64,000 bases of DNA from NCBI GenBank assembly GCA_039638495.1, contig JBDIWN010000001.1, positions 1,582 through 65,581 on the forward strand, written 5' to 3'. Positions 7,401 to 61,309 of this stretch are shown here, piece by piece. The notes beneath the pieces are model-generated. The model was given only the letters and a program-made list of their open reading frames with translations. It did not search any database and was not told where the DNA came from. A program made the translations under genes and the position numbers. Position 1 is the first letter of the stretch. Each line of letters begins with the position of its first letter. Origin of the DNA: Candidatus Profundicultor thermophilus. GTDB lineage: Bacteria > Atribacterota > Atribacteria > Atribacterales > Caldatribacteriaceae.

Positions 7401-7940
7401 CTATTCGCAAATGTTTTCTGTGCAAGAAGATTGGGTCTTTTTTTGGGAAGCCACTTTTTTCTCCATCAAGACTGACAGAGCTTGGGCAATTTTCTCATAA
7501 CTCACATTTTTGTCCCAGCGCTGGACCACTCTTCCGGTTGGTGAAAGGAGAAAGAGACTCGGTGTATTCCATATACCCAAAATCACCCGGTCTCGGGGAG
7601 CAAGGTAATAAATCTTCATCTCAAAGGGCAAACTTTCATGGATATTCTGCAACGCCCGCCAGTCGCATTCCGAACAGATTGGAAAAAAGAGGAGGGTATC
7701 GTTTCCCTTGAGTTTATTTTGGAACTGGAGTACCGTGTTGAGACAGGAGAAACAATCGGGAGAAAAAAAATAAAGCAAAGACCACGATGAAAGAGGAATA
7801 CGCTGCTCTTCACCTTGGAGGGTGTAAAGATTGAAGGTGGGCAATTTTCGTACTGATGCTCCAGCATAACCAATGGTTCCGATGGTTATGGCAACGACGA
7901 GAAACATGAGGGCAAACTTCAACCATTGTACCTTTTTCAT
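7401..7940 (-). CDS. Membrane-anchored thioredoxin-fold thiol-disulfide oxidoreductase (TlpA/ResA-like)
   Basis: N-terminal TM (WLKFALMFLVVAITIGTIGYA), CxxC motif in thioredoxin context (FFSPDCFSC), and a second CSEC pair. Strong AGGAGG RBS upstream. It follows the TolB-like gene by 15 nt. Confidence 0.65.
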   Translation of the reverse strand: MKKVQWLKFALMFLVVAITIGTIGYAGASVRKLPTFNLYTLQGEEQRIPLSSWSLLYFFSPDCFSCLNTVLQFQNKLKGNDTLLFFPICSECDWRALQNIHESLPFEMKIYYLAPRDRVILGIWNTPSLFLLSPTGRVVQRWDKNVSYEKIAQALSVLMEKKVASQKKTQSSCTENICE

Positions 7941-7955
7941 GAGTGTTACCTCCTT

Positions 7956-9170
7956 TTAATAAATCGGATAGGGTGTGAATACCGGATCTCCCTCTTGGGC
8001 CAAGGAAGAAGTGAGGCGGTAGATGAGGTTCCTTTTGTAGAGGTCCAACACAAAGATGTCCCAATTGTTACCTTCTTTCTGGCCTCTGAAAGTTATCCAT
8101 CGCCCGTCCGGGGAAGGAGCGGGATGAGCTTTGGGAAAGTTGTCCACCGTCAGTCGGGTGATGTTTCTTTCGAATACGCTGTAAAGGTAAAGGTCATACA
8201 TTCCATTGATCTCGCCAACAAAAACAATATTTTGTCCATTGAACATAAAGGTTGGTTGAAAAACATTACCAGGGAAATCAAGAGTTTCTTCGGTCTGGGA
8301 AAGAAGATTCTTTATCTTGAGTTGCCACTTCCCCCCGGTGAGTTCGCAGTAGATGAATCGCTGACCATCTCTGGAAAATGATGGGGCATCGACTGGATTT
8401 TCCTTTTCAAAGAGGAGACGTTGATTGGAGCCATCCAGATTCATGGTAAAGAACCCCCTTTTTGTGTTGCGCTCGGAGACGAAAACAATTTTCCGGTCTC
8501 TCTCGGAAAACGAGGGAGAAGCATCGCTCCATTCCCAGGGGCTGAGGCACTGAAATGCGCGCTCCTGCATCGCAAAGAGGTAGATGGCTTTTTTATGACC
8601 CTGGTTCGCTACAAAGGCGAGGAACTGACCATCGGGACTCATGGTGAGGCCCTCCGCTGGTCCAAAGAGGAAGGAAGTGAGCAGTACCTCTCTTTTTCCC
8701 TGCGGGTCAATAGCCAGAAGCAGGAACTGACCATTCGTTTCACGGGGAAAAATAATTTTGATCTCCGGTTCAAGAGCCAGAATTTTTCGCATCTTCTCTT
8801 TTAACGTTGCTTCCATTGTTTTTCCTTCTTCTTTCTTGCGTACCATAGATAAAATTTCTTGCCTAAAATGGAGATCAATTAGTTCTACAAAGAGCAAAGA
8901 ATCCTTTTCGTAAGCCACAAAAAAGAGATTGGCGAGTGAGGCTAATTTTTCTAAGGAGACGGGTTTCGTAATTTCTTCTTGGGGAGGGAGAGGTTCAGGG
9001 GGGACAACCACGATGAGGTTTGCTTCATGGGCGAAGAATTCTTTGAGGGAGAGGATGGATTCGTTCTGGGTATAATCCAAAAAAAGGAGCTTCTCTGAAG
9101 CGTTGGTTTGATGAGTGATGATGAGTATCCAGAGGAAGGCTACAAAAAAAATCTGGTGACTTTTTTTCAT
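7956..9170 (-). CDS. TolB-like periplasmic beta-propeller protein
   Basis: Start moved to ATG 9170, giving a signal peptide MKKSHQIFFVAFLWILIITHQTNA. The C-terminal two thirds carry repeated PD40/WD40-like units (SPDGQFLAFV, SFSERDRKIVFVS, SFSRDGQRFIY, SPDGRWITF). Confidence 0.7.
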   Translation of the reverse strand: MKKSHQIFFVAFLWILIITHQTNASEKLLFLDYTQNESILSLKEFFAHEANLIVVVPPEPLPPQEEITKPVSLEKLASLANLFFVAYEKDSLLFVELIDLHFRQEILSMVRKKEEGKTMEATLKEKMRKILALEPEIKIIFPRETNGQFLLLAIDPQGKREVLLTSFLFGPAEGLTMSPDGQFLAFVANQGHKKAIYLFAMQERAFQCLSPWEWSDASPSFSERDRKIVFVSERNTKRGFFTMNLDGSNQRLLFEKENPVDAPSFSRDGQRFIYCELTGGKWQLKIKNLLSQTEETLDFPGNVFQPTFMFNGQNIVFVGEINGMYDLYLYSVFERNITRLTVDNFPKAHPAPSPDGRWITFRGQKEGNNWDIFVLDLYKRNLIYRLTSSLAQEGDPVFTPYPIY

Positions 9171-9220
9171 TTTGTTGGGATACCCCCTTTGCGGTGAGCA
9201 ATTCTTCACGCTTTTTTAAT

Positions 9221-12430: not shown

Positions 12431-14460
12431 GATTTGAGAAAGTCCTGAAACGAGATGGAAAAGTAGAGGAGTTTTCTCCTTCTAAAATCACCAATGCTAT
12501 CTTCAAAGCGCTTTCTGCTTGTGGGAAAAAAGATCAAGCACTCGCCGAGCGGCTGACTGAAAAGGTCATTGATGTTCTGGCCCAGCGGGTAACCGGCATT
12601 TTGCCCAGTGTGGAAACGATTCAAGATGGAGTGGAAGACGTGCTCATGGCGGAAGGACTTTCAGATGTGGCGCGAGCGTATATCCTGTATCGGGAAAAAC
12701 GGAGAAATCTTCGCGAGGCCAAATGGCAACTTTTTGGTGTTCGGGACGATTTGAAGTTGTCCCTCAATGCAGTGCGAATTTTGCAGGAGCGTTATCTCCT
12801 CAAGAATGAAGAAGGAGAAGTGGTGGAAACACCAAAAGAAATGATGCAGCGTGTGGCGCAAGCCATTGCGGCAGTGGAAAAGAATTACGGTGGGGAAGAA
12901 GACCAGACCTTTGAAGAATTTTATACTCTGCTTTGCGGGCTGCTTTTTTTGCCAAATTCCCCCACACTCATGAATGCTGGAACTCCTCTTGGACAGCTTT
13001 CTGCTTGTTTTGTATTGCCCATTGAGGATTCCATTGACTCGATTTTTGATACTTTAAAGGAAATGGCTCTGATCCATAAATCAGGAGGTGGAACCGGGTT
13101 TAACTTTTCTCATTTACGTCCCAAGGGGGATCTAGTTCAAAGTACTGGCGGACGGGCTTCTGGACCGGTTTCGTTTATGAGGATTTTTGATACGGCAACT
13201 GAGGTGGTGAAGCAGGGAGGAAAAAGGCGCGGTGCCAATATGGGTATTTTGCGTTTGAATCACCCTGATATTGAAGAATTCATTCGAGCAAAGGAGCGAT
13301 CCGAATTTTTGGAGAACTTTAACCTTTCGGTGGCAGTGACACAGGAAGAAATGGAAAAAGTGAAAAAGGGCGATATGCTTGAACTGGTTAATCCCCGCAA
13401 TGGACAGGTAGTTAGGAAAATCAATGCTCGTGCCCTTTTTGAACGAATTGCGGAAAGTGCCTGGAGGAGTGGGGAACCAGGAATGATTTTCCTGGATCGG
13501 ATTAACTGTGATAATCCCACACCGTCTCTGGGAAGGATTGAAGCAACCAATCCCTGTGGGGAAGTACCGTTGCTACCGTATGAATCCTGTAACCTGGGTT
13601 CTCTCAATCTTTCCCGGATGGTGAAAGAGGGACGGATTGATTATGAACGATTGAAGGATACGGTATGGAAGGCTGTCCATTTTTTGGATAACGTGATTGA
13701 CGCAAACCATTATCCTTTGTCTCTGGTAGAGGAAATGGTTAAAGGGAATCGAAAGATTGGCCTTGGAGTTATGGGTTTTGCTGATATGCTCATCCAGCTG
13801 GGGATTCCCTATTACAGCGAGGGTGCTTTGAAGGTTGCTCAAGAGGTTATCCAGTTTATTGCTTTGCAGGCTCGGCTGGCTTCGATGAGACTGGCTGAAA
13901 AGCGGGGTACCTTCCCCAGGTATCCCGATAGTATTTGGGCGAAAAGGGGTCTTCGACTTCGTAATGCGACTCTGCTTTCCATTGCTCCAACCGGTTCTAT
14001 CAGTTTGATTGCTTCCTGCTCAAGTGGCATTGAACCGCTTTTTGCTCTGGCTTTTCGTCGTTACGTTCTGGAGCAAACGGAGATTGTGGAGGTGCACCCT
14101 CTTTTAGAGGAAATGTTTTCTCATTACGGAATTTCAGAAACTTTGCAGCGTCACATTCTTGAGAAAGGGAACATGGAAGGAATCGAGGGAATTCCACCGG
14201 AATTTCACGCCCGGTTTTTCACCGCTTTGGAAATTCCTCCCGAATTCCATGTTCGGATGCAGGCTGCTTTCCAAAAGTATGTTGATAACGCAGTTTCAAA
14301 AACGGTGAATCTCTCAGCAGAATCGACTCCCCAAGAAGTGCTCGCGGTGTACCTTTTGGCTTATGAATTGCAGTGCAAGGGTATTACCGTATACCGTTAC
14401 CAGAGTCGACCCGCACAGGTTCTATATCTTGGAGTGGAGGGAGAGTGCAAAGAATGCTGA
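12427..14460 (+). CDS. nrdJ: Class II (adenosylcobalamin-dependent) ribonucleotide reductase with N-terminal ATP-cone
   Basis: ATP-cone-like start (VLKRDGKVEEFSPSKITNAI), active-site segment TNPCGEVPL, and a C-terminal redox pair ECKEC. ATGA overlap with the HAD gene. Confidence 0.85.
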   Translation: MRFEKVLKRDGKVEEFSPSKITNAIFKALSACGKKDQALAERLTEKVIDVLAQRVTGILPSVETIQDGVEDVLMAEGLSDVARAYILYREKRRNLREAKWQLFGVRDDLKLSLNAVRILQERYLLKNEEGEVVETPKEMMQRVAQAIAAVEKNYGGEEDQTFEEFYTLLCGLLFLPNSPTLMNAGTPLGQLSACFVLPIEDSIDSIFDTLKEMALIHKSGGGTGFNFSHLRPKGDLVQSTGGRASGPVSFMRIFDTATEVVKQGGKRRGANMGILRLNHPDIEEFIRAKERSEFLENFNLSVAVTQEEMEKVKKGDMLELVNPRNGQVVRKINARALFERIAESAWRSGEPGMIFLDRINCDNPTPSLGRIEATNPCGEVPLLPYESCNLGSLNLSRMVKEGRIDYERLKDTVWKAVHFLDNVIDANHYPLSLVEEMVKGNRKIGLGVMGFADMLIQLGIPYYSEGALKVAQEVIQFIALQARLASMRLAEKRGTFPRYPDSIWAKRGLRLRNATLLSIAPTGSISLIASCSSGIEPLFALAFRRYVLEQTEIVEVHPLLEEMFSHYGISETLQRHILEKGNMEGIEGIPPEFHARFFTALEIPPEFHVRMQAAFQKYVDNAVSKTVNLSAESTPQEVLAVYLLAYELQCKGITVYRYQSRPAQVLYLGVEGECKEC

Positions 14461-15640
14461 GCAAGTCTTGGGCGATGTAAAGCGCTCCATTTCTTTGGTT
14501 CTGCCATATCCTTTTACTGAAGTCTTCGGCTTTTTTCTGCATTTGGGGTAGGTTGGTAATTGTTTCCTTCAAGATGGATGCGGTTTTCTCTGGGGTATTC
14601 TCTCCCTGAATCAATGCTTCGCGCAAGAGGAGTTTTTGCCGTTTCTCTAAAAAATACCGGTTGACCTGAATCGCCCGTGTGGCGTAGGGCTCAAGGCATG
14701 GTATTCCCAAGTGGGCTGCATGCTCTAATGCAGTTCCGGCAAATCCAACCACAAGAGCGGTGTCACCAAGGCGCGTGAAGTAATCTCCTTGACTCCAGGT
14801 AACCGAGAGACCTTCAAGGGAGAAAGAAGAGGTTGAAGGAATTGCTCCGATTTCTCGAACCAAACTTTCGATTTCTAGAGTTGATGGTTCGGGTGGAAAA
14901 ACAAAATGCGGGAGGTAGGGAGGGAAAAGACTGCGGGTATGGAGGATGGTGGTAACCAGGAACCGAAAATTTTCTTTCCAATCACCGCGATGTCCGGGAA
15001 GGAAAAGGATAGTCTGACTCTTGGGATTTTTCTTGGGGAGGAGTGGTCCTACGAATCCAAGGTAACAGGCGTTAATTCCCAGACTTTGAAGCCACAGCGC
15101 GGTGGGGTGGTCACGAGTATAGATTTTTTGAACCAGGTGATGGAGCAGATGGGCGTTGAATTTTCCGAGACGTTCATACGGTTTTCCTTTGGTATGGAGG
15201 AGTGCGGTATGGGCGCAGGCGAAAAGGTAGGCTTTCTTCCTTAAGGATATGAAACTCAGAAGGAGTAGAAAAACGTCTCCAATGACTACTACCATGTCCA
15301 CCGTTCTTCTGATCCGTGCCAGGTGGTATATTGATTGGAGCGTATTTTTCGCTCCACCGCTTAGAACATCGAAGATCAGTCGACCGAGTCGCTGAAAGAC
15401 GTTTCCGAGGTACACACCCCCATAGGGCAGGGGCAAAAAACTTTTGAGAAGGGAACATTGTTGGGGGTGTTGTCTGCAGAGGTCTTGCAGGAGTTTTCCT
15501 TCTCCCACAAGTGGCATAAAACTGAGACGGACCGGGATTTTCTGACGTTTTGCTTCCTCAATAAAAGCGGTGGCGATGAGTTGCAGGAAAGAATCTTCGC
15601 CATATCCATTACTCAAAAATAGTACATGCTTTTCCATCAT
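14384..15640 (-). CDS. GT-B fold glycosyltransferase related to lipid-A-disaccharide synthase (TIGR03492-like, from memory)
   Basis: The N-terminus VLFLSNGYGEDSF and the later GFAGTALEHAAHLGIPCL resemble the LpxB-related family. The last ~25 codons overlap the 3' end of nrdJ convergently. Confidence 0.5.
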   Translation of the reverse strand: MMEKHVLFLSNGYGEDSFLQLIATAFIEEAKRQKIPVRLSFMPLVGEGKLLQDLCRQHPQQCSLLKSFLPLPYGGVYLGNVFQRLGRLIFDVLSGGAKNTLQSIYHLARIRRTVDMVVVIGDVFLLLLSFISLRKKAYLFACAHTALLHTKGKPYERLGKFNAHLLHHLVQKIYTRDHPTALWLQSLGINACYLGFVGPLLPKKNPKSQTILFLPGHRGDWKENFRFLVTTILHTRSLFPPYLPHFVFPPEPSTLEIESLVREIGAIPSTSSFSLEGLSVTWSQGDYFTRLGDTALVVGFAGTALEHAAHLGIPCLEPYATRAIQVNRYFLEKRQKLLLREALIQGENTPEKTASILKETITNLPQMQKKAEDFSKRIWQNQRNGALYIAQDLLSILCTLPPLQDIEPVRVDSGNGIR

Positions 15641-20090: not shown

Positions 20091-20119
20091 TTGACACAGG
20101 ACCTGAGAAAATATAAAAT
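20091..20119 (+). promoter_or_regulatory. Consensus sigma70-type promoter upstream of tig
   Basis: TTGACA (20091-20096), exactly 17 nt, then TAAAAT (20114-20119). Confidence 0.7.
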
Positions 20120-23415: not shown

Positions 23416-26055
23416 ATGAAAGAGAAATTGGTACTCTCTCAAGCCTTTGACCCGCGTTTGGTTGAAGAAAAGTGGTACAGCGTTTGGGAAAAGAAGGGGT
23501 ATTTCGCGCCGGCTCCTTCTGGTCAGCCTTTCTGTATTGTAATTCCTCCTCCGAACGTGACTGGCCATTTGCACATGGGTCATGCTTTGAATCTGACTCT
23601 GCAGGATATTGTGATCCGGTTTCGGCGTATGCAGGGATATCGAGCCCTGTGGATACCCGGAACCGATCACGCTGGCATTGCCACCCAAAATGTGGTGGAG
23701 AAAGAGCTGACCAAGGAGGGTGTGAGCCGGGAAGGACTGGGAAGAGCAAAATTCCTGGAGAGGGTCTGGGAATGGAAAGATCGGTATCACCGGAGAATCG
23801 TAGAGCAGTTAAAAAAGATGGGGGCTTCTTGTGATTGGGCAAGAGAGCGTTTCACCATGGATGAGGGGCTCTCCCAGGCGGTCAGAGAAGTATTTGTCCG
23901 CCTGTTTGAAGAGGGCTTAATCTATCAGGATGAGTATATTGTCAACTGGTGTCCTCGTTGTGCAACAGCATTGGCTGACATTGAAGTGGAATACGAAGAG
24001 CGTCCCTCGCATCTCTGGTATATTCGGTACCCCTTAAAGGGAGATTCCCATCGTTTCCTGGTTGTGGCAACCACAAGACCTGAGACCATGCTTGGAGATG
24101 TGGCTTTGGCGGTGAATCCAAACGATGAGCGTTATAAAAATTTCGTTGGCCAAATGGTCATCCTTCCTCTTATGAATCGAGAAATTCCGATTATTGCTGA
24201 CGAGTATGTGGATCCTGATTTTGGCACCGGGGTGCTCAAGGTTACTCCTGCTCATGATCCTCACGATTTTGAACTCGGGGAAAAGCATGGGTTGCCCCGG
24301 GTCCGGGTTCTTGACGCTCGGGGTGTTATGACTGAGGAAGCTGGACGATTTGCCGGACTTCCTCGAGAGGTAGCTCGCCAGAAGGTGGTGGAGGCACTCC
24401 AGGAGGAGGAGTTGCTCGAGAAAATCGAAGATTACACCCATTCGGTTGGTCACTGTTACCGGTGTGGGACCGTTATTGAACCCCTGATTTCGAAGCAATG
24501 GTTCGTAAAAATGAAAGGTCTTGCCGAAGGTGCAATCCGAGCGGTTCAGGATGGACGGATAGAATTTGTTCCAGAGCGCTGGTCGAAGGTGTACTTTGAG
24601 TGGATGGAGAACATTAAAGACTGGTGTATCTCCCGGCAAATTTGGTGGGGACATCGCATTCCGGTTTTCTATTGCCGAGATTGTGAATATGTTTTCGCTC
24701 ATCGCCATGATCCGGAAAGCTGCCCCCGCTGTGGAGGGCCAGTTGTCCAGGATGAAGATGTTCTTGATACCTGGTTTAGCTCTGCGTTGTGGCCTTTTTC
24801 TACTTTAGGTTGGCCTGAGGATACTGAAGATCTGCAGACTTTTTATCCCACCTCGCTTCTTGTAACTGGGTTTGATATCATCTTTTTCTGGGTGGCACGA
24901 ATGATCATGATGGGGCTCAAATTCATGAGTGACATTCCCTTTCGCAAAGTGTACATTACTCCTCTGGTGCGGGACGAAAAAGGAAAAAAGATGAGTAAAT
25001 CTTTGGGGAATACCATTGATCCCTTGGAGGTGGTTGAGCAATACGGTGCCGATGCCTTGCGTTTTGCATTGGCCTGGCTTACGGTTCAGGGGCGGGACAT
25101 TCATCTTTCTTTGCGTCGAGTGGAAGCAGCGCGCAATTTCATGAATAAATTATGGAATGCATCTCGTTTTGTGTTGATGAATTTGGACGATTTTGAGTTG
25201 TTACCCTGGTCTTCTTGGGATGCTTTGGACCTCAAGGACCGCTGGATTCTCTCCCGATTCCACCGAGTGATTAGGGAGACTACCCAGGAGCTTGAAAATC
25301 TGAATTTTGGGCAGTATGTTCAGCTCATTTATGATTTTGTATGGGGCGAGTACTGTGACTGGTACCTCGAATGGGCCAAAGAGGACCTCTACCGTGGTGA
25401 TGAGAAGACACGGCGTAAGACGCAAAATGTTCTGGTTTTTATTTTAAATGGTATTTTGAGAATCTTACACCCTGTGGCACCGTTCATTACCGAGGAAGTC
25501 TGGAGTAGTCTTCCAAGGAATGAGGAGGAAAACTTAATCGTCGTTTCCTGGCCTGTCGCGACGGGAGAAAGCGATGAAGAAGCTGAAAAGGCGGTAAAAG
25601 TAATCCAGGAAATCGTTCGGGAAATACGGTATCTTCGGGCTGAACTCCGTATTGCTCCGGCAGAGAAATGTCGGGTGCAGCTGAATTTCTCTGCCGGCAA
25701 TCTTTTGGAGCGCTTGCGTTATGGTGAACGGTATATCGAGCAACTGGCAAAGTGTACCGTCGAAGAAATGGATTTTGAGATTGCAAAACCCCGACATGTG
25801 GCTACAGGAAGAATTCCAGGGGTGGATGTCTATCTTTTGGTCGAAGGCTTAGTGGACGTAGAAAGGGAACTGGAAAGGTTAGAAAAGAAGATATTAGGTG
25901 TTGACGTGGAAATCGAACGCATAAAGAGTAAACTTGAAAACCAGGATTTCCTCAATCGGGCTCCTCAGGAAGTTGTGGAGAGGGAAAAGGAACGCTGGCA
26001 AACACTTCTTGAAGAGAAAAGGAGATTGGAGATTCTGAGGGCGGGGATGCGATGA
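23416..26055 (+). CDS. valS: Valine--tRNA ligase
   Basis: Class I signatures PNVTGHLHMGHAL and KMSKSLGN, an editing-domain-sized insertion, and a C-terminal coiled coil. Confidence 0.95.
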   Translation: MKEKLVLSQAFDPRLVEEKWYSVWEKKGYFAPAPSGQPFCIVIPPPNVTGHLHMGHALNLTLQDIVIRFRRMQGYRALWIPGTDHAGIATQNVVEKELTKEGVSREGLGRAKFLERVWEWKDRYHRRIVEQLKKMGASCDWARERFTMDEGLSQAVREVFVRLFEEGLIYQDEYIVNWCPRCATALADIEVEYEERPSHLWYIRYPLKGDSHRFLVVATTRPETMLGDVALAVNPNDERYKNFVGQMVILPLMNREIPIIADEYVDPDFGTGVLKVTPAHDPHDFELGEKHGLPRVRVLDARGVMTEEAGRFAGLPREVARQKVVEALQEEELLEKIEDYTHSVGHCYRCGTVIEPLISKQWFVKMKGLAEGAIRAVQDGRIEFVPERWSKVYFEWMENIKDWCISRQIWWGHRIPVFYCRDCEYVFAHRHDPESCPRCGGPVVQDEDVLDTWFSSALWPFSTLGWPEDTEDLQTFYPTSLLVTGFDIIFFWVARMIMMGLKFMSDIPFRKVYITPLVRDEKGKKMSKSLGNTIDPLEVVEQYGADALRFALAWLTVQGRDIHLSLRRVEAARNFMNKLWNASRFVLMNLDDFELLPWSSWDALDLKDRWILSRFHRVIRETTQELENLNFGQYVQLIYDFVWGEYCDWYLEWAKEDLYRGDEKTRRKTQNVLVFILNGILRILHPVAPFITEEVWSSLPRNEEENLIVVSWPVATGESDEEAEKAVKVIQEIVREIRYLRAELRIAPAEKCRVQLNFSAGNLLERLRYGERYIEQLAKCTVEEMDFEIAKPRHVATGRIPGVDVYLLVEGLVDVERELERLEKKILGVDVEIERIKSKLENQDFLNRAPQEVVEREKERWQTLLEEKRRLEILRAGMR

Positions 26056-26621
26056 AGCTTTTTTCCTTTTTATCGCGTCGGGATAAAGTGGAACTCCTGG
26101 CCATTTTTTTGGGAGGACTGGTGGTGGTGGTCTTTGCCTTTTTTATGGCTCGAGGAGATCTCGATGCGTACGTGGAGGTTCTCTTGAAAGAGAGCATACC
26201 AGAGGAAGGAGGAACTCCTTTTTCTCCTGAAGTGCTTAATGAAGAGGTGGTAGAGGACCAAGAAACTCTTGCGAGTTTTCTGACTTCTCCTTCACCTTTT
26301 ACCATTCCCCGGGAAGAGCCGCCAACGATACCATTAGCCACTGAGCAACCAACCACTGTCCCATCTCCTTCTTTCCTACCGCAGCCTTCTCCTCGTGCGA
26401 CTCCCAGAGGAACGTTTTATGTCCAGGTGGGGGCATTCTCCAAGGAGAGCAATGCTCAGGGTATGGTTGCAACACTCAAGGGTCTCGGCTATTCAGGAAC
26501 CATAGAAAAGGTTTCTTCGCTTTATCGGGTACGGATATATGGTTTTTCCTCTCTGGAGGAGGCGCAAAAAGCGGTGAATCGTTTGAGAGCTCGGGGTATT
26601 GAAGCTTTTGTCAGTAAATAA
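26052..26621 (+). CDS. SPOR-domain membrane protein
   Basis: ATGA overlap with valS. N-terminal TM (LLAIFLGGLVVVVFAFFMA), Pro-rich linker, and a C-terminal SPOR-like domain (FYVQVGAFSKESNAQGMVATLKGLGY...YRVRIYGFSSLEEAQKAVNRLRARG). Confidence 0.75.
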   Translation: MKLFSFLSRRDKVELLAIFLGGLVVVVFAFFMARGDLDAYVEVLLKESIPEEGGTPFSPEVLNEEVVEDQETLASFLTSPSPFTIPREEPPTIPLATEQPTTVPSPSFLPQPSPRATPRGTFYVQVGAFSKESNAQGMVATLKGLGYSGTIEKVSSLYRVRIYGFSSLEEAQKAVNRLRARGIEAFVSK

Positions 26622-26631
26622 GGAGAGGGCG

Positions 26632-26994
26632 ATGACTCTTAAAGAAGTCAAAGAGATTCTGGGGGCCGAAGTTCTGGTAGGGGAAGCATTTTTGCAACGC
26701 GAAATTTGGTATGCTTGTGGGAGTGATTTGCTGAGCGATGTTTTGGCATTTGCCAAGGAACACGCACTTTTGTTAACTGGTTTGACCAATTCTCAGGTCA
26801 TCCGCACTGCGGAAATGATTGACCTTTTGGGAATTGTCTTTGTCCGAGGAAAGAAGCCGGAACATTCGACCATTGAACTGGCCGCCCTGAAAGGGATACC
26901 TCTTCTCACCACTCGTCTTCCCATGTATGAATCTTGTGGGAGGCTGTATCTTAAGGGATTGAGGGGATGTAGCGAATTTGGCTCCAATGCTTGA
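26632..26994 (+). CDS. DRTGG-domain protein (copy 1)
   Basis: Start ATG 26632 after AAGGAGAGGG. Pattern LGAEVLVG...CGSDLLSDVLAF...LLLTGLTNSQVIRTAEM...IVFVRGKKP. It parallels the second copy at 28781. Confidence 0.6.
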   Translation: MTLKEVKEILGAEVLVGEAFLQREIWYACGSDLLSDVLAFAKEHALLLTGLTNSQVIRTAEMIDLLGIVFVRGKKPEHSTIELAALKGIPLLTTRLPMYESCGRLYLKGLRGCSEFGSNA

Positions 26995-27430
26995 GGAGCA
27001 TCCTCTAATCGAAATGGAAAGGGAGATTGTCGGTGGAGACTTTCAGCGGGCTGGTGATGTTTCCAGTGAGCTTAAAAATATCCTACAGCGAGCCGGATTT
27101 CCTCCAGCGTTTAATCGCCGGGTGGTCATTGCTTCTTATGAAGCGGAGATGAACGTGGTTATTCATGCGTATCGGGGTGTTTTCAAGGCCAGCGTGTATT
27201 CTGACCGGGTACATGTGGAAATTGACGATCAGGGTCCGGGTATTCCGGATCTGGAATTAGCTTTTCAGGAAGGGTATTCTACCGCTCCACCCCACATTCG
27301 AGAAATGGGTTTCGGAGCAGGATATGGGTTATCCAATATGAAAAAGTGTTCCGATGTGCTGACGATTGATACCCGGGTTCAGGAAGGAACAAAAGTGGTT
27401 ATGGATTTTTTCCTCTTTTCAAACTCATGA
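26978..27430 (+). CDS. GHKL-type ATPase, RsbW/SpoIIAB-like anti-sigma serine kinase fold
   Basis: N box EAEMNVVIHA, G1 box DDQGPGIPD, G2 box GFGAGYGLSN. Single-domain ~150-aa protein. It overlaps the upstream gene by 17 nt (TTG 26978) or 8 nt (ATG 26987). Confidence 0.7.
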   Translation: MAPMLEEHPLIEMEREIVGGDFQRAGDVSSELKNILQRAGFPPAFNRRVVIASYEAEMNVVIHAYRGVFKASVYSDRVHVEIDDQGPGIPDLELAFQEGYSTAPPHIREMGFGAGYGLSNMKKCSDVLTIDTRVQEGTKVVMDFFLFSNS

Positions 27431-27447
27431 TGAGCTGGTGAAAATCT

Positions 27448-28800
27448 TTGGCCATTCAGGAAATTTTTCATTCGGTTCGTTTAGATGAGAGTAAATGCAA
27501 AGGGTGCACGCACTGTATCAGAAGATGTCCAACCGAAGCCATACGGGTCAAGGGTGGTAAAGCCTGTATCGATGAAAGGCGGTGTATTGATTGTGGTGAA
27601 TGTATCCGCACCTGTCCCAATTATGCAAAGTATGCGCAAACAGACCCTCTGGAAATCATTAAAAAATTCAAGTATGCTGTGGCTCTGCCTGCCCCTGCTT
27701 TTTATGCCCAGTTTAAATTCACCGTTCCTCTGGGAAAAATTCTGGGAGGGTTATTAAAAGTCGGTTTTCACGATGTCTTCGAAGTCGCCAGGGGTGCGGA
27801 AATTTTGGCAGAGGAAATCAAAACGTACCTTGAGGGGCGGGATGTTCCCAAACCAGTGATTTCCTCAGCCTGTCCGGCAGTGGTGCGACTTGTGGAGGTC
27901 AAATTTCCAGCTTTGATCGAGAACCTTCTTCCTCTTGATTCTCCCTTGGGGGTTGCAGCAAAAATTGCCCGTCTTCAAGCGATGAAGAAGGGGTATAGCG
28001 CGGATGAAGTTGGAGTGTTTTTTGTGACGCCTTGTCCGGCAAAGGTCACTGAGGTGAGACAGAGTGGCGATGAATTGGCTCGGATTGATGGAGCCATATC
28101 GATGAGCGGGATTTACTCCCGCTTGGTGAACGAACTGGGAGAAGTGGAAGAGGTTCCCCAGGTCCAGATGGCTAGTTTTAAGGGCATTGGTTGGGCGCGA
28201 TCTGGAGGTGAACAGGAGTCCCTGGGAGAGGGAGAGTACATGGCTGTGGATGGAATCCACTATGTGATTTCGGTCCTGGAGAAAATTGAAGTTGGAGAAT
28301 TGAAAGAAGTGGTATATTGCGAGGCGCAGGCCTGTGTGGGAGGATGCATTGGGGGAGTTCTTTCCGTGCAAAATCCCTTTGTGGCCAAGGTCAATGTGAA
28401 TCACCTGTTGAAGAAGTATGGTCGTTTTACGCCGATATCTGAGGAAGAGCTCAAGGTGTGGCGCAGGGCTTCGATTTTTGCTCGAACCAGAGCGTATGAA
28501 GCCAAGGAAGTCATGCGTCTTGACCAGGATTTGCACCGTGCTTTGGAAAAGTATCAGGCTATCGAAAAACTGCTGGAAAAATTACCGGGTTTGGACTGTG
28601 GTGCTTGTGGTTCGCCAACCTGCCGAGCCCTGGCGGAGGACATTGTTCAGGGAAAGGCAGTCGAGGTGGATTGTCCCTTTCTCCTCCGTAGCCATATGCT
28701 GGATCTGGCTATGGAAATTTATAGTCTGGCCAGCCGTGTTCCCCAAACCATGGTAAAAAAAGAAGAGGGGGCAAAAAAAGTTGAAAGTCAGGATTCGTGA
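27448..28800 (+). CDS. [FeFe]-hydrogenase-like protein, putative sensory type (2x[4Fe-4S] + H-domain + C-terminal Cx2Cx4Cx16C)
   Basis: CKGCTHCIRRCP and CIDCGECIRTCP ferredoxin motifs. H-domain motifs are SSACPAV, TPCPAKVTE and EAQACVGGCIGG. The C-terminus reads CGACGSPTCRALAEDIVQGKAVEVDCP. Confidence 0.75.
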   Translation: MAIQEIFHSVRLDESKCKGCTHCIRRCPTEAIRVKGGKACIDERRCIDCGECIRTCPNYAKYAQTDPLEIIKKFKYAVALPAPAFYAQFKFTVPLGKILGGLLKVGFHDVFEVARGAEILAEEIKTYLEGRDVPKPVISSACPAVVRLVEVKFPALIENLLPLDSPLGVAAKIARLQAMKKGYSADEVGVFFVTPCPAKVTEVRQSGDELARIDGAISMSGIYSRLVNELGEVEEVPQVQMASFKGIGWARSGGEQESLGEGEYMAVDGIHYVISVLEKIEVGELKEVVYCEAQACVGGCIGGVLSVQNPFVAKVNVNHLLKKYGRFTPISEEELKVWRRASIFARTRAYEAKEVMRLDQDLHRALEKYQAIEKLLEKLPGLDCGACGSPTCRALAEDIVQGKAVEVDCPFLLRSHMLDLAMEIYSLASRVPQTMVKKEEGAKKVESQDS

Positions 28801-29140
28801 CATTGTAAAGAATCTTGGAGCCGAGGTACTTGTTGAAGGTGGTATGGAGCATGGAGCGGTGCGTGGGGGGTACTGTGGAGATCTTCTCAGTGATTGTATT
28901 GCCAACGCCGAAGAAGGAAGTGTGTGGGTTACCATCCAATCGCATCCTAATGTGGTGGCGGTAGCATCTTTAGTCGGTATTCCCTGCATTGTGGTTACGA
29001 ATAACCAGGAAGTTCAGGAACAGACTCTGGAGAAAGCCCGGGAACAGGGGATTACCATTTTGAAAACGCCTCTCTCTTCGTTTGAGGCTGTGAGTGTGCT
29101 TTCCCAGCTGGGTGTTTCCGGGAAAAGACGACATGCCTGA
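28781..29140 (+). CDS. DRTGG-domain protein (copy 2)
   Basis: LGAEVLVEG...YCGDLLSDCIANAEEGSVWVTIQSHPNVVAVASLVGIPCIVVTNN, colinear with copy 1. TTG start overlapping the hydrogenase-like gene by 20 nt. Confidence 0.6.
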   Translation: MKVRIRDIVKNLGAEVLVEGGMEHGAVRGGYCGDLLSDCIANAEEGSVWVTIQSHPNVVAVASLVGIPCIVVTNNQEVQEQTLEKAREQGITILKTPLSSFEAVSVLSQLGVSGKRRHA

Positions 29141-29885
29141 AGGTGATTTACAAGTTTTTGTGGCGGATCTCCATATTCACAGTGTCCTGTCACCATGTGC
29201 CCAGCGAGAAATGCTTCCTCAGTGTATCATCCTTGAAGCTCTGGAGAAAAAAATTGACATGATTGCTCTCTGTGACCATAATGCGTGTGACAATGTGGAG
29301 GTAACTGTTGCTCTGGGTAACCGTTTTGGAATATGGGTGATTCCGAGTATCGAAGTGGAAACTCGGGAAGAAGTACACCTCCTCTGCTATTTTCCTACTG
29401 TTTTGCAGCTCCAAAACTTCAATCATCTCGTTTCTGCATCGCTTCTTCCCATGCCGTTGCGCGAAGATATATGGGGTGAAGAATGGGTGATTGGTGAAGA
29501 CGGGCAAGTCTCTGAAAAGAAAGCGCATCTTCTGACCTACCCGACTACTCTTTCGGTGGAGGAGGTCGTTACTTTGGTGCGCACCTTTGGCGGTGTGGTA
29601 GTTCCGGCGCATGTGGATCGTAAGCATTACAGCATTGTATCTCAATTGGGTTTTATTCCTCCGGACTTAATGATACCTGCAGTGGAAATTTCGCAAAGAG
29701 CGCCGTGGAAGGAGGTAGCCGAACAGCTTGGGCTTCAGCGCTTCCAGGTTTTGTGTTCTTCCGATGCCCACCAGCTTAGCGAAATTGGGCTGGGGAAAAC
29801 CTATTTTTTGATGTATGCCCTTAACTGGTCGGAATTTATGCTGGCTATGCATGGTGAGGCAGGAAGAAGTATTTTTTTACCCTAA
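29133..29885 (+). CDS. PHP-domain metal-dependent phosphoesterase
   Basis: Start ATG 29133 (8-nt overlap). PHP histidine motifs ADLHIHSVLSPC, ALCDHN, PAHVDR and SSDAH. Confidence 0.7.
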   Translation: MPEGDLQVFVADLHIHSVLSPCAQREMLPQCIILEALEKKIDMIALCDHNACDNVEVTVALGNRFGIWVIPSIEVETREEVHLLCYFPTVLQLQNFNHLVSASLLPMPLREDIWGEEWVIGEDGQVSEKKAHLLTYPTTLSVEEVVTLVRTFGGVVVPAHVDRKHYSIVSQLGFIPPDLMIPAVEISQRAPWKEVAEQLGLQRFQVLCSSDAHQLSEIGLGKTYFLMYALNWSEFMLAMHGEAGRSIFLP

Positions 29886-29965
29886 TTCTTGATTGTTTCT
29901 TCAAAGGCCCCTTTGGAATAAAACATACATTCTATTTTTTTCTCTTCATCCCTATTTTAAGATTT

Positions 29966-30005
29966 ATAGTGGTTGGTTGTGGCATAAAGTGGTTTAAAGG
30001 GGAAG
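29966..30005 (+). promoter_or_regulatory. Putative MraZ operator: direct repeats with 10-bp periodicity
   Basis: ATAGTGG, GTTGTGG, AAAGTGG, AAAGGGG. The GTGG/GGGG cores start at 29969, 29979, 29989 and 29999, immediately upstream of mraZ. A TATAGT -10-like hexamer (29965-29970) overlaps the first repeat. Confidence 0.5.
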
Positions 30006-30012
30006 GGATACG

Positions 30013-30456
30013 ATGTTTCTTAGCCATTACCGTCACACTGTGGATAAAAAAGGTCGGATTGTCATTCCCAGTGAGTTCCGTGACGCGCTTCGGGAAAGAA
30101 TCTACCTCACTCCTGGCATTGAATCCTGTGTTTTCATCTATCCTCAAGAGGAGTGGGAAAAACTCTACCGGAAAGTGACTTCTCTTCCTCTTACCCAGAA
30201 GGATGCACGTGATTTCATGCGTCTCTTCCTTTCCAGTGCTGCCGCGGTAGAAATTGATCCTCAGGGTCGGGTGATGTTGCCTTTACACCTCCGGAGGTAT
30301 GCTCAGATCGAAAGCCGAGTGATCCTTTTAGGTGTTGGGAATCGAGTTGAAATATGGGCTGAGGAGAATTGGGATGCCTATTTCCAGAAAATCCAGAGTA
30401 GTTTCGAAGCAATTACTCAAAGTATTGTTATGGAAGAGCATCCATATGGTCGTTAG
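30013..30456 (+). CDS. mraZ: Transcriptional regulator MraZ
   Basis: MFLSHYRHTVDKKGRIVIPSEFR and a second half-domain EIDPQGRVMLP (duplicated DxxGR motif). First gene of the dcw cluster. Confidence 0.95.
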   Translation: MFLSHYRHTVDKKGRIVIPSEFRDALRERIYLTPGIESCVFIYPQEEWEKLYRKVTSLPLTQKDARDFMRLFLSSAAAVEIDPQGRVMLPLHLRRYAQIESRVILLGVGNRVEIWAEENWDAYFQKIQSSFEAITQSIVMEEHPYGR

Positions 30457-59978: not shown

Positions 59979-61309
59979 GCGAACGATATCGCCTCGACGC
60001 GGTCTCGATTCTCAACCGGTTTTATCAGAGGAAGATTTGTTTCTTGGAAGAGGGATACAATGGGTTTTTTGCCAGACGTTTGTATTCCCCTCGAGAGCGG
60101 AGTCTTCTGGTAAGTGTGGTGCGGGGAACGGTGAAAACCAAGGCACACCTTGAAGGGATCCTTCGTGGCCATTTACCGAAATGGGAACGGCTGCCTCTGG
60201 CGATTCAGAATCTTCTTCGGTTGGCTCTGTTTCAGATGATTTTTCATTCGGGAATTCCGGTTTTCGCCACGGTTCATGAATGGGTGGAAGTAACCAAAAG
60301 TTTGCCAAATAGGGAATTTGTTCCTCTGGTGAACGCCGTTCTGAGGAAAGTTGGAGAAGAGATTCCCAACTATCGGGAAAAAGCGCTGGAGTGGGGCATG
60401 ATACTGCCAGACTGGATAGAGGAGGAATGGAAAGCGCTTTTTCCAGAAGACCAAGCGGAAATCAAACGTTCTTTGATGCTCCCCCCTGAAACCCATGTTC
60501 GGGTGAATACCCTCCGTATCGGAAAAGATGCACTTCGAAAGCGGCTTGAGCACTATGGCATGCTGGTGGAAGAGATTCCCGGTCTCCCTTTCACCCTTCG
60601 AGTAGAGGGGGAATCGTCAGTCTTGTTTACCATTCCGGAGTGGCAAGAAGGACTTTTCTATCTCCAGGATGTGGGTTCGCAGGTGGTGACGATGCTCTGT
60701 AATCCCTCTGCTGGGGAGAGAATTGTGGATCTTTGTTGTGGGGTAGGAGGGAAATCGACGGCTTTTGCCCAACTGATGGGGGATCGGGGTGAAATTTTTG
60801 CCTGGGACTGGGACTCCAAAAAAATTGAGGTATTACGACATTTCATCTCCCGTATGGGAATAAAGAGTATTGTTCCAGCGGTCGTGGATGGATTCAAACC
60901 ACCTGAGGAGTTTTTGGAGAGTGCTGACCGGGTTTTTCTCGATGCTCCCTGTTCCGGTTTGGGAACGTTACGCCGACATCCTGAGGTTTTAGAAAGAACG
61001 GACCAAAATACGGTCAGGGCATTGGCTGAAAAGCAACTGAATTTGTTGTTGTCGGCTTCTCGTTTAGTAAAAAGAGGAGGTATAATACTATATTGTGTTT
61101 GTGCTCTGAGCATGGAAGAGACCGAGGGTGTGGTGAGGAAGTTTGAGGAACAAATGAGAGGCGAATTTGAAAGAATTTCGGAACGAGTGATGGATGGCGA
61201 AGGAACAGCTTTTTCCCATTTCAGTCTGGTGAGCGATGGAGGTATCTTTATCCTCCCTCACCGGATGAGGAATGACGGATTTTTCGTAGCGATATGGAAG
61301 AAAAAGTGA
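59975..61309 (+). CDS. rsmB: 16S rRNA (cytosine967-C5)-methyltransferase
   Basis: TTGA overlap. NusB-like N-domain, SAM motif DLCCGVGGKS, catalytic LDAPCSGLGTLRRHPE, and second Cys YCVCAL. Confidence 0.9.
   Translation: MSERYRLDAVSILNRFYQRKICFLEEGYNGFFARRLYSPRERSLLVSVVRGTVKTKAHLEGILRGHLPKWERLPLAIQNLLRLALFQMIFHSGIPVFATVHEWVEVTKSLPNREFVPLVNAVLRKVGEEIPNYREKALEWGMILPDWIEEEWKALFPEDQAEIKRSLMLPPETHVRVNTLRIGKDALRKRLEHYGMLVEEIPGLPFTLRVEGESSVLFTIPEWQEGLFYLQDVGSQVVTMLCNPSAGERIVDLCCGVGGKSTAFAQLMGDRGEIFAWDWDSKKIEVLRHFISRMGIKSIVPAVVDGFKPPEEFLESADRVFLDAPCSGLGTLRRHPEVLERTDQNTVRALAEKQLNLLLSASRLVKRGGIILYCVCALSMEETEGVVRKFEEQMRGEFERISERVMDGEGTAFSHFSLVSDGGIFILPHRMRNDGFFVAIWKKK

Follow-up and report, generated by a model that had tools for sequence, protein, structure and literature searches.

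Five genes in the window (the whole 64,000-nucleotide stretch of Candidatus Profundicultor thermophilus DNA analysed here) form a cassette that is an ordinary member of an already known system, built on the group D [FeFe]-hydrogenase HydS. On balance, we favour the view that this cassette is a self-contained hydrogen-sensing device, a standard group D HydS module split from its usual hydrogenase operon. All five open reading frames were present on the + strand at 26632-29885, where the first-pass annotation had placed them, and their coordinates confirmed the packing it described, with successive junctions consisting of a 17-nt overlap, a 17-nt gap, a 20-nt overlap, and an 8-nt overlap. The 127-nt gap between the last gene and mraZ was also as described, while the gap to the upstream SPOR gene measured 10 nt rather than 11 nt. 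The features of the region are:

26052-26621, + strand: SPOR-domain protein (Pfam SPOR, 73.4 bits), overlapping valS by 4 nt
26632-26994, + strand: DRTGG-1 (D1, g1), 120 aa from an ATG, a single-domain DRTGG protein, paralogue of D2, kinase-associated
26978-27430, + strand: KIN (g2), 150 aa, a small GHKL ATPase of the SpoIIAB/RsbW-like superfamily type
27448-28800, + strand: HydS (g3), 450 aa, a group D (M2e) [FeFe]-hydrogenase by Pfam and motifs
28781-29140, + strand: DRTGG-2 (D2, g4), 119 aa, a sensor-associated DRTGG protein by Pfam
29133-29885, + strand: PHP (g5), about 245-250 aa from an ATG, a PHP-family metal-dependent phosphoesterase by orthologue profile
29969-29992, + strand: putative MraZ operator, three GTGG boxes spaced at exactly 10 nt and lying 21-44 nt 5' of the mraZ ATG
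30013-30456, + strand: mraZ (Pfam MraZ, 124.8 bits), the first dcw gene

A longer version of D1 from a TTG at 26599 found no support among homologues, and the ATG was kept. For PHP, an alternative GTG start lies at 29094.

By its motifs, its colinearity with TamHydS of Thermoanaerobacter mathranii (at least 44% identity), and the definition of Land 2020, g3 is clearly assigned to group D (M2e) as a HydS. Pfam matches to two Fer4 domains, Fe_hyd_lg_C (110.5 bits), and FeS PF04060 (50.7 bits) outline a protein that starts with a 2x[4Fe-4S] domain, continues with an H-domain, and has a further [4Fe-4S] domain at its C-terminus, the same order as in TamHydS and likewise with no PAS domain. Invariant in our HydS alignment (A1) were SSAC142P, where C299 is replaced by Ala (A141); T194-P-C196-x-x-K199, where M353 is replaced by Thr; C296xxxC300; and the C-terminal Cx2Cx4Cx16C (C384x2C387x4C392x16C409), which TamHydS also carries. 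The C299 to Ala and M353 to Ser/Thr substitutions are common to both proteins, whereas they differ at M497, with Gln in the present protein and Leu in TamHydS. Residues D383/C384, E397/D398, and D408/C409 were conserved and match those highlighted for group D. None of the 70 group D enzymes in the published list is an Atribacterota sequence.

Relatives occurred in at least 571 species-level genomes. A gene-neighbourhood census covering 80 species-level loci recovered the order D1-KIN-HydS-D2-PHP in 64 of them, spread over several phyla, an arrangement far beyond chance that marks the five genes as a conserved unit. Directly after the cassette came hydCBA (hydC-GHKL-Fd-hydB-hydA) in 39 of the 48 informative non-Atribacterota loci, bearing out the earlier remark on similar gene sets beside bifurcating hydABC operons. 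One published example is Halsa_1862-1871 of Halanaerobium hydrogeniformans, whose flanking genes are of the same cassette-hydCBA type and are listed as an anti-sigma-type Ser/Thr kinase, an Fe-S hydrogenase, a PHP protein, NuoE, a histidine kinase, a ferredoxin, NuoF, and HydA. The Atribacterota cassette instead lies between valS-SPOR and mraZ, in a co-directional array with tig-clpP-clpX-valS-SPOR, and mraZ takes the place of hydCBA in all eight informative Atribacterota loci. Both cassette and position are kept across HydS identities ranging from 95% to 67%. The module had been called an orphan, and this holds insofar as no hydrogenase operon is present at the locus (HMMs for HydA, HydB, and the NuoE-like HydC found nothing else in the window), but its position is conserved across Atribacterota and nine other lineages also have the cassette detached from hydCBA. 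The reported absence of HydEFG, sigma factors, and STAS proteins also stood in Pfam scans of the main remaining window ORFs.

Natural fusions among relatives join D1 to KIN (L029, L061, L063, L070), the HydS C-terminus to D2 (P0117, P0118, P0138, P0153, P0157, P0212, L051), and D2 to the N-terminus of PHP (P0235), and we also found KIN::DRTGG and FeS-domain::DRTGG fusions. Together, the D1::KIN, KIN::DRTGG, HydS::D2, and D2::PHP fusions link all five cassette parts.

The two DRTGG proteins were detected by Pfam at 26.0 bits for D1 (cut-off 25.2) and 38.4 bits for D2, which additionally matched Hpr_kinase_N (30 bits), and their reported colinearity reflects paralogy (hhalign probability 99.9% between the two families). 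Each family has an invariant serine, in D32-L33-x-S35 of D1 (numbered from the ATG; Ser in 59/59 orthologues) and D34-L-L-S37 of D2 (64/64), that is kept in every fusion protein and is a candidate phospho-acceptor judging from this conservation. An AF2 model of D2 (pLDDT 85, pTM 0.80) places the serine in the first turn of a helix that follows a strand. The best Foldseek match of D2 was the DRTGG protein AF1212 (TM 0.83), with the CBS-pyrophosphatase regulatory domain, HPr kinase N-domain, and Mur ligase N-domains as further structural neighbours, and we rejected a STAS-like assignment because these neighbours show DRTGG to be a distinct fold. DRTGG is not known to be a phospho-acceptor fold, which counts against a phosphorylation mechanism.

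KIN matched HATPase_c_2 (44.1 bits) and HATPase_c (38.4 bits) in Pfam, and its N box (E55/N59/H63), G1 box (D84xG86xG88), lid (EGYSTA), and G2 box (G111-F-G-A-G115-x-G117) were fully or almost fully conserved across 77 orthologues. The earlier description of an anti-sigma-type kinase fits these intact boxes and the nearest solved relative, the SpoIIAB-type anti-sigma F factor 1TIL (E = 1.7e-6), but not the family scores, which fall far below the RsbW and SpoIIAB cut-offs (best NCBIfam match SpoIIAB, 49 bits against a cut-off of 135). The proposed partner-switching circuit agrees with the fusions, the intact kinase ATP site, and the invariant serines, but since DRTGG is a fold of its own and KIN scores so low, "partner switching" is an analogy rather than family membership, and as an analogy it is plausible for the cassette. 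Like the SpoIIAB-SpoIIAA-SpoIIE and RsbW-RsbV-RsbU/P modules, the cassette combines a GHKL protein of about 150 aa that has intact N, G1, and G2 boxes with small single-domain partners whose invariant serine sits at the N-terminus of a helix, and its operon also encodes a metal-dependent phosphoesterase; unlike them, its partners are DRTGG rather than STAS proteins, its phosphoesterase is PHP rather than PP2C, and it has no sigma factor.

Pfam profiles thus recovered the predicted DRTGG, GHKL, and hydrogenase domains, while the PHP match of g5 (19.3 bits) fell below its cut-off of 26.4 and was recovered by a profile of 23 orthologues. This profile aligned over its full length with the PHP domain of Endonuclease Q (E = 9e-16), followed by TrpH-like 3E0F, the 5'-3' exoribonuclease 7UG9, and Cv1693-type 2YB1, and the protein is accordingly closest by profile to Endonuclease Q and then to TrpH/RNase AM-type nucleic-acid and nucleotide phosphoesterases. 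The suggested likeness to the CpsB/YwqE protein phosphatases failed, with no such match at E <= 1. Its metal ligands are all invariant among orthologues, the invariant residues being D12, H14, H16, S20, C22, D48-H49-N50, E74, H82, H160, E185, and S210-D211-A212-H213 (numbered from the ATG), and the His/Asp/Glu ligands are shared with the Endonuclease Q catalytic domain. Beyond that domain the 400-aa Endonuclease Q chain continues into parts that include a zinc finger and a C-terminal DNA-binding domain, all of which the cassette protein lacks, as it consists of the PHP domain only. It also differs in an S-P-C motif that follows the first HxH and is invariant.

We propose that HydS, with a complete H-cluster site and no proton-relay cysteine, would react slowly with H2 and act as the sensor, a behaviour carried over from TamHydS, for which a sensory role was proposed (Land 2020), on the strength of shared motifs. 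Its maturation would fall to HydEFG encoded elsewhere. D2 would read the H2-dependent state of HydS through the C-terminal [4Fe-4S] domain, as the fusions suggest, since D2 stands at the place of the PAS, MCP-signalling, or sigma-54 activator modules of sister sensors; the redox state of the corresponding TamHydS cluster is unchanged under H2, which counts against this route. D1 and D2 would couple HydS to KIN, which we tentatively suggest may phosphorylate the DL(L/M)S serine of one or both, using ATP, in a partner-switch-like toggle. PHP would end or reverse the signal by removing the serine phosphate or by hydrolysing another phosphoester, and its service as the protein phosphatase of the cassette is possible but somewhat doubtful. 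Variant loci without D2-PHP contained no PP2C or other protein phosphatase in its place, and had CheW and CN-hydrolase genes instead. As the first-pass annotation had indicated, we found no established mechanism for such gene sets in the literature searched, and a 2026 paper still calls for HydS interaction partners to be identified.

Comparable wiring is found in other sensors. The sister lineage group C (M2f), including the HydS proteins of Thermotoga maritima and Ruminococcus albus and HfsB of Thermoanaerobacterium hfsABCD, has the same N-terminal clusters, degenerate proton pathway, and C-terminal [4Fe-4S] domain; its H2 signal is proposed to reach an adjacent Ser/Thr kinase/phosphatase pair, and deletions of hfsA and hfsB shift fermentation balance. 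Group C proteins differ in their fused PAS domain, whereas the present HydS has none and is followed by a separate (sometimes fused) DRTGG protein, with a phosphoesterase of PHP type. The regulatory [NiFe]-hydrogenase system HoxBC/HoxJ/HoxA of Cupriavidus necator also uses a low-activity hydrogenase as a kinase-controlling H2 sensor, though its metal centre and proteins are unrelated and it ends in a response regulator, while no cassette gene encodes a DNA-binding domain.

An unlikely alternative is that the cassette turns H2 status into a nucleotide signal, with DRTGG binding a (di)nucleotide, PHP hydrolysing a small-molecule or RNA phosphoester, and the GHKL protein serving as a regulated ATPase or nucleotidyl-transferring enzyme. 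The Endonuclease Q-like profile of PHP agrees with this, as do NCBIfam matches to the N-terminal PHP domains of TrlF and Ppl, to nucleoside bisphosphate phosphatase, and to RNase RNM, and among DRTGG neighbours the CBS-pyrophosphatase is under adenine-nucleotide regulation and Mur N-domains bind UDP. The CBS-pyrophosphatase nucleotides bind the CBS domains, not DRTGG, however, and the cassette includes no messenger cyclase or synthetase. The nearest solved relative of KIN is a protein serine kinase, and the invariant serine with the D1::KIN and D2::PHP fusions is more simply explained by enzyme-substrate pairs.

It is quite unlikely that KIN instead sequesters a sigma or transcription factor encoded elsewhere, with D1 and D2 as H2-controlled antagonists and a transcriptional output. 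Beyond the anti-sigma F and anti-sigma B kinases that are its best family and structure matches, a transcriptional regulator adjoins the TamHydS gene (Land 2020), Rex genes flank 16 of 71 non-Atribacterota loci, and a HydS-like::sigma-54 activator fusion indicates that H2 sensing can feed transcription. Yet no sigma gene appeared in the window, in Pfam-annotated related loci, or in the scanned neighbours of variant loci, KIN lies far below the equivalog cut-offs, and Rex, a separate and well-understood NADH sensor, was not detected by HMM in any of nine Atribacterota loci.

That HydS is simply a slow catalytic hydrogenase, its four small companions being accessories for [FeFe]-hydrogenase assembly, protection, or activity control, seems improbable. 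TamHydS shows slow H2 turnover (Land 2020), and the usual association with hydCBA, whose operons include a second GHKL protein and a thioredoxin-like ferredoxin, would suit such a role. The cassette, however, is intact with all catalytic residues conserved where no hydCBA adjoins it, in all Atribacterota and the nine further lineages, CheW neighbours occur in variant loci, and fusion of the HydS scaffold to MCPsignal, sigma-54 activator, and (in group C) PAS modules shows its use as an input domain.

Finally, Atribacterota may have rewired the cassette to cell division, by co-transcription with or action on SPOR and dcw, such that H2 build-up slows division. The place between valS-SPOR and mraZ is constant in all eight informative Atribacterota loci, the SPOR gene lies directly 5' of D1 in all Atribacterota loci (and abuts it in several phyla, within 72 nt in eight non-Atribacterota loci), the gap before mraZ has no terminator-like site, as first reported, and H2 inhibits growth of A. 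laminatus, though the two Caldatribacterium isolates are reportedly rather insensitive. The dcw cluster, which extends to ftsZ at 46164 with FtsA, FtsZ, and FtsQ-type matches, is preceded by GTGG boxes that, going by published knowledge of MraZ boxes, are a putative MraZ operator of its promoter region; boxes of this kind (three or four, at 10-nt spacing) recur 5' of mraZ in most related loci (7 of the 10 other Atribacterota loci examined), which suggests that a promoter region under MraZ control belongs to dcw itself. Because Bacillota share the valS-SPOR-cassette adjacency with hydCBA next, not dcw, the neighbourhood looks like inherited synteny, so the position beside mraZ is probably synteny rather than regulation and the rewiring is very improbable.

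As a hydrogen-sensing device, the cassette would have a post-translational output, acting in trans on H2 or redox metabolism. Atribacteria are H2 producers with group A3 [FeFe]-hydrogenases reported elsewhere in their genomes, and about 80% of other lineages have hydCBA attached to the cassette; its most plausible target would be a bifurcating hydrogenase of the HydABC type.

The five-gene cassette consists of five + strand open reading frames, as the first-pass annotation stated, and its successive junctions measure -17, +17, -20 and -8 nt.

Genes of the cassette in the window
26632-26994, + strand: g1 (D1), open reading frame; Pfam DRTGG
26978-27430, + strand: g2 (KIN, a small GHKL ATPase), open reading frame; Pfam HATPase_c_2 and HATPase_c
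27448-28800, + strand: g3 (HydS), open reading frame; Pfam two Fer4 motifs, Fe_hyd_lg_C and FeS (PF04060)
28781-29140, + strand: g4 (D2), open reading frame; Pfam DRTGG
29133-29885, + strand: g5 (PHP), open reading frame; PHP match below the Pfam cut-off

The domains proposed for g1-g4 were recovered by Pfam, with DRTGG scoring 26.0 bits in g1, just over the cut-off of 25.2, and 38.4 bits in g4, and that of g5 was recovered through a profile of 23 orthologues. The colinearity claimed for D1 and D2 was borne out by hhalign (99.9%), which identifies g1 and g4 as paralogues. The gap between g5 and mraZ is 127 nt as first given; that between the SPOR gene and g1 is 10 nt rather than 11.

The features of HydS match the definition by which M2e/group D enzymes are classed as putatively sensory, namely the absence of Cys299, the replacement of Met353 by Ser or Thr, and related features (Land et al. 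2020), and because of this match we assign g3, by sequence, to group D. Residues 10-60 match Fer4 families and carry the motifs for two N-terminal [4Fe-4S] clusters (C17, C20, C23, C27 and C46, C49, C52, C56), invariant in the HydS alignment, as are the H-cluster ligands C142, C196, C296 and C300 and K199 of motif L2. In the H-domain (Fe_hyd_lg_C, 110.5 bits), SSA141-C142-P has Ala in place of the proton-relay Cys299, and T194-P-C196 has Thr in place of Met353. The C-terminus carries C384-x2-C387-x4-C392-x16-C409 (FeS PF04060, 50.7 bits). HydS is colinear over residues 7-440 with TamHydS, the characterised member from Thermoanaerobacter mathranii, at 44-50% identity (tblastn against the published coding sequence), figures lowered by OCR frameshifts in the published sequence text. 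The group D-conserved D378/C379, E392/D393 and D403/C404 of TamHydS are matched in the window protein by D383/C384, E397/D398 and D408/C409. No group D structure is present in the PDB, where the best sequence match, a Desulfovibrio enzyme, covers the N-terminal half only. Group C sensors differ in having a PAS domain at the C-terminal output position, and a Pfam scan found none in HydS; we rejected hfsABCD as the same system, HfsB being a group C protein with a PAS domain.

In one scan of species-representative genomes, no fewer than 571 loci encoded a relative, of which the best 80 were annotated with purpose-built HMMs (phmmer/hmmsearch iteration). The cassette was counted by gene order rather than by strict distance, which gave too low a count where longest open reading frames overlapped. 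The order D1-KIN-HydS-D2-PHP was found in 64 of these 80 loci, so that the conservation expected of a real module is present; of the remaining 16, contig ends truncate five and the other 11 are variants.

Genes downstream of the cassette in the 64 complete loci
Non-Atribacterota: hydC, a 185-aa GHKL protein, a thioredoxin-like ferredoxin, hydB and hydA, 39 of 64
Non-Atribacterota with at least 6.5 kb of flank: hydCBA and mraZ both absent, 9 of 64
Non-Atribacterota with a flank too short to tell, 8 of 64
Atribacterota: mraZ, 8 of 64

The first-pass statement that similar gene sets lie beside hydABC operons proved correct, bifurcating-type hydCBA operons lying downstream in the 39 loci, with cKcBA (27 loci) and KccBA (8 loci) as the main orders. 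These operons also hold a second GHKL protein of about 185 aa (HATPase_c/HATPase_c_3; L007:13000-13943, with equivalents in 47 loci) beside a thioredoxin-like [2Fe-2S] ferredoxin of about 125 aa, in two main layouts, hydC-GHKL-Fd-hydB-hydA and GHKL-Fd-hydC-hydB-hydA. A 2014 description of the Halanaerobium operon Halsa_1862-1871 already set it out in this way but gave no mechanism. The module is not a novel orphan; it is the Atribacterota member of a known system with relatives in at least 571 species-level genomes. Beside the detached cassettes of Bacillota we found no consistent output partner: the neighbours vary, among them a PRK/uridine-kinase-domain protein upstream, GGDEF-EAL, GNAT, YjbR, a nitroreductase and others.

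The best matches of the cassette HydS are from Atribacterota, and the closest genome among the matches listed is that of Ca. Profundicultor aquiphilus (Caldatribacteriaceae), at 95% identity. Atribacterota contigs at 81, 73 and 67% HydS identity share the order tig-clpP-clpX-valS-SPOR-[five genes]-mraZ-rsmH-ftsL-PBP-mur, and valS-SPOR-cassette-mraZ-rsmH was found in all eight Atribacterota loci that extend past the cassette. This shared context, together with a cassette GC content matching that of its flanks, marks the location as ancient and passed on vertically in the phylum. As a representative of the known system, the cassette in the window is ordinary and of vertical descent. A SPOR gene lies directly upstream of D1 in all Atribacterota (26052-26621 in the window). 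A valS and/or SPOR gene also precedes the cassette in 18 non-Atribacterota loci; in eight of them (L023, L036, L042, L058, L067, L069, L077, L090) SPOR is within 72 nt of D1, and in four of these eight valS lies about 2-3 kb further upstream. This neighbourhood therefore predates Atribacterota, and since it is shared, the peculiarity of the phylum is the lack of hydCBA at the locus rather than what lies upstream.

HMM scans of the window and Pfam scans of its main remaining open reading frames detected neither HydABC nor HydEFG, and no sigma factor or STAS protein either, in agreement with the first-pass annotation. Elsewhere the window encodes housekeeping functions: V-ATPase subunits, a Liv-type transporter, ribonucleotide reductase, threonine-pathway genes, tig-clpPX-valS, the cell-division (dcw) cluster through ftsZ, DivIVA, lspA, priA, def-fmt-rsmB and rpe. 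PknB-type kinases are usually located between rsmB and rpe; here a 350-aa protein with three PASTA repeats (61294-62346, + strand) occupies that position, with no match to a protein-kinase domain. Nearly all genes lie on the + strand, all 2-kb bins over 1-64000 have a positive GC skew, with a monotonic rise of the cumulative curve, and the window lies wholly on the leading strand of one replichore. The rare minus-strand open reading frames are at 14384-15640, 7401-7940 and 7956-9209; those of 418 and 179 aa have no Pfam match, and that of 417 aa matches PD40 beta-propeller repeats only.

Promoter and terminator scans over 19.9-31.5 kb yielded sites no more numerous than in shuffled sequence, and operon boundaries are therefore ones that we infer. 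The best sigma-70-like site (20091-20119, TTGACA-17-TAAAAT, 11/12), just upstream of tig (20167), was the only strong candidate promoter before the tig-clpP-clpX-valS-SPOR-cassette array, total matches being not above chance. The region between the cassette and the division genes contains the following.

29886-30012: PHP-mraZ gap, 127 nt
29969, 29979 and 29989 (29969-29992): three GTGG boxes spaced by exactly 10 nt, 21-44 nt ahead of the mraZ start

Boxes of this kind, as many as four and spaced by about 10 nt, also precede mraZ in seven of ten other Atribacterota loci examined (L019, L001, L014, L004, L017, L012 and, with a single box, L008). We take them to be MraZ operator-like, from what has been published on that operator. 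The dcw cluster thus probably has its own regulated promoter region, and such boxes speak against a role of the cassette as a dcw leader.

Turning to the signalling proteins, the N, G1 and G2 boxes previously claimed for KIN are present (N, E55/N59/H63; G1, D84xG86xG88; G2, G111xGxG115xG117) and, like the lid element, are invariant or nearly so across 77 orthologues. The classification of KIN as an anti-sigma serine kinase held in part: the ATP boxes and its nearest solved relative, SpoIIAB, favour it, but the scores fall far under curated thresholds (49.4 bits against TIGR01925, cut-off 135; 19-22 bits against RsbW models, cut-offs 145-155). We found no cognate sigma factor or STAS antagonist for KIN in the window or in the annotated related loci. 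In RsbW/SpoIIAB systems the antagonist has a STAS fold, whereas the partner in this cassette has a DRTGG fold; Foldseek ruled out a STAS-like fold for DRTGG. The AF2 model of D2 (pLDDT 85, pTM 0.80) is closest to AF1212 (TM 0.83) and the DRTGG regulatory region of CBS-pyrophosphatase (TM 0.71-0.75), followed by the HPr kinase N-domain and then Mur ligase N-domains. D1 and D2 form distinct paralogous families, each scoring about 100 bits higher with its own HMM than the members of the other. Both carry a DL(L/M)S motif whose Ser is kept by all 59 D1 proteins, all 64 D2 proteins and all fusions; in the D2 model this residue, Ser37, falls within the opening turn of helix 36-42, which follows strand 29-32. 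The conservation of this Ser and the existence of D1::KIN fusions lend indirect support to its being a phosphorylation target of KIN. The D2 representative search also returned a 363-aa protein in which a D2-like DRTGG domain is joined to an ABC-transporter ATPase domain (P0209) and a 278-aa protein in which such a domain follows an unannotated N-terminal region of about 160 aa (P0245).

Natural fusions connect the products of the cassette. We detected HydS::D2 fusions of 515-570 aa in several lineages, a 214-aa fusion of the FeS domain to DRTGG, D1::KIN fusions of 269-270 aa in relatives of Thermoanaerobacterium and Tepidanaerobacter, a KIN::DRTGG fusion (P0165) and a D2::PHP fusion (P0235). 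Other HydS-like proteins end in recognised outputs. One carries an MCP signalling domain (L030:11410-13323), is preceded by a histidine kinase, a response regulator, KIN and HydS, and lies in a locus that has no D2-PHP; two of 751-759 aa join Fer4, Fe_hyd_lg_C and FeS to a sigma-54 activator AAA+ domain and HTH_8 (L026:11080-13359, L064:13026-15281), apparently one-component H2-sensing enhancer-binding proteins. Thermanaeromonas and Moorellaceae loci have the genes for the latter downstream of hydA. Because MCP, the sigma-54 activator and the PAS domain of group C sensors share the same C-terminal position, D2 is predicted to occupy the output-module position of HydS. Further variants without D2-PHP have the order CheW-(D1)-KIN-HydS-CN_hydrolase (L043, where a PAS-GGDEF protein follows, and L049) or D1-KIN-HydS-CN_hydrolase (L031). 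In these D2-PHP-less variants no protein phosphatase replaces PHP, the changes being CheW upstream, a CN-hydrolase downstream or HydS::MCP instead; they therefore give no support to reading PHP as a phosphatase.

The g5 protein belongs to the PHP phosphoesterase superfamily (PF02811). Its single sequence scored 19.3 bits, under the Pfam cut-off of 26.4, and the ligands H14, H16, D48, H49, E74, H82, H160, D211 and H213 are invariant among orthologues, which also keep an S-P-C motif. Against the PDB, the orthologue profile matched Endonuclease Q best (E = 9e-16, full length); the other closest solved relatives are TrpH-like phosphoesterases, a 5'-3' exoribonuclease and PolC PHP domains. These affinities speak for a less probable alternative, in which the cassette would handle a nucleotide or RNA-phosphoester signal; protein phosphorylation with PHP-mediated reset fits the natural fusions and the invariant Ser. 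The CpsB/YwqE protein phosphatases had been named as PHP-family members, but no such chain matched at E <= 1 in this sequence-level comparison. Histidinol-phosphate phosphatase was rejected, as HisPPase structures matched marginally (E = 0.047-0.18 over about 40 residues) and the gene is fixed in the HydS cassette (64/80 loci).

The best-supported reading is that the cassette is an autonomous H2-sensing unit. H2 would be sensed by HydS, whose state D2 would read; D1 and KIN would provide an ATP-dependent step, PHP would terminate the signal, and the target would be encoded in trans, with HydABC or redox metabolism as the most plausible choice. Within this unit, Ser phosphorylation of the DRTGG proteins with PHP-mediated reset is a tentative proposal, possible rather than probable. 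Slightly more doubtful is that the chemistry, taken alone, represents a new kind of partner switch in which DRTGG is the phospho-Ser acceptor and PHP the Ser phosphatase. The full reading, in which a DRTGG/KIN/PHP switch is the output of group D and Atribacterota couple H2 to growth and division and not only to hydrogenase, draws on the loss of the hydrogenase operon from the Atribacterota locus and on the flanking SPOR and dcw genes; we regard it as very improbable. The first-pass annotation was thus accurate as observation and supported in part as interpretation, phosphorylation and PHP reset being what we still infer.

We found no publication joining DRTGG, hydrogenase and PHP, and no mechanistic paper on kinase or phosphatase signalling by HydS. 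For TamHydS alone, low turnover, high H2 affinity and an H2-induced structural change are known; its C-terminal cluster stays unreduced under H2, a 2026 study having ruled out redox change and judged it critical to find the interaction partners next. Genomes of the class Atribacteria near-universally encode group A3 [FeFe]-hydrogenases, plus ones labelled 'C'. A. laminatus, which has trimeric and tetrameric [FeFe]-hydrogenases, is inhibited in growth by H2, and Caldatribacterium isolates are relatively insensitive to it.

H2 is the key currency of anaerobic syntrophy, and group D [FeFe]-hydrogenases, proposed sensors of H2, are widespread, a single scan having turned up no fewer than 571 species-level genomes. 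The Atribacterota cassette is a new member of this known, widespread system, and its five genes are maintained as an autonomous unit with no hydrogenase operon beside them. The fusion network nominates partners (HydS with DRTGG-2, DRTGG-1 with the kinase, and DRTGG-2 with PHP), and the invariant Ser offers a single testable residue. The value of the case lies in comparative evidence that makes the question of group D signalling directly testable.
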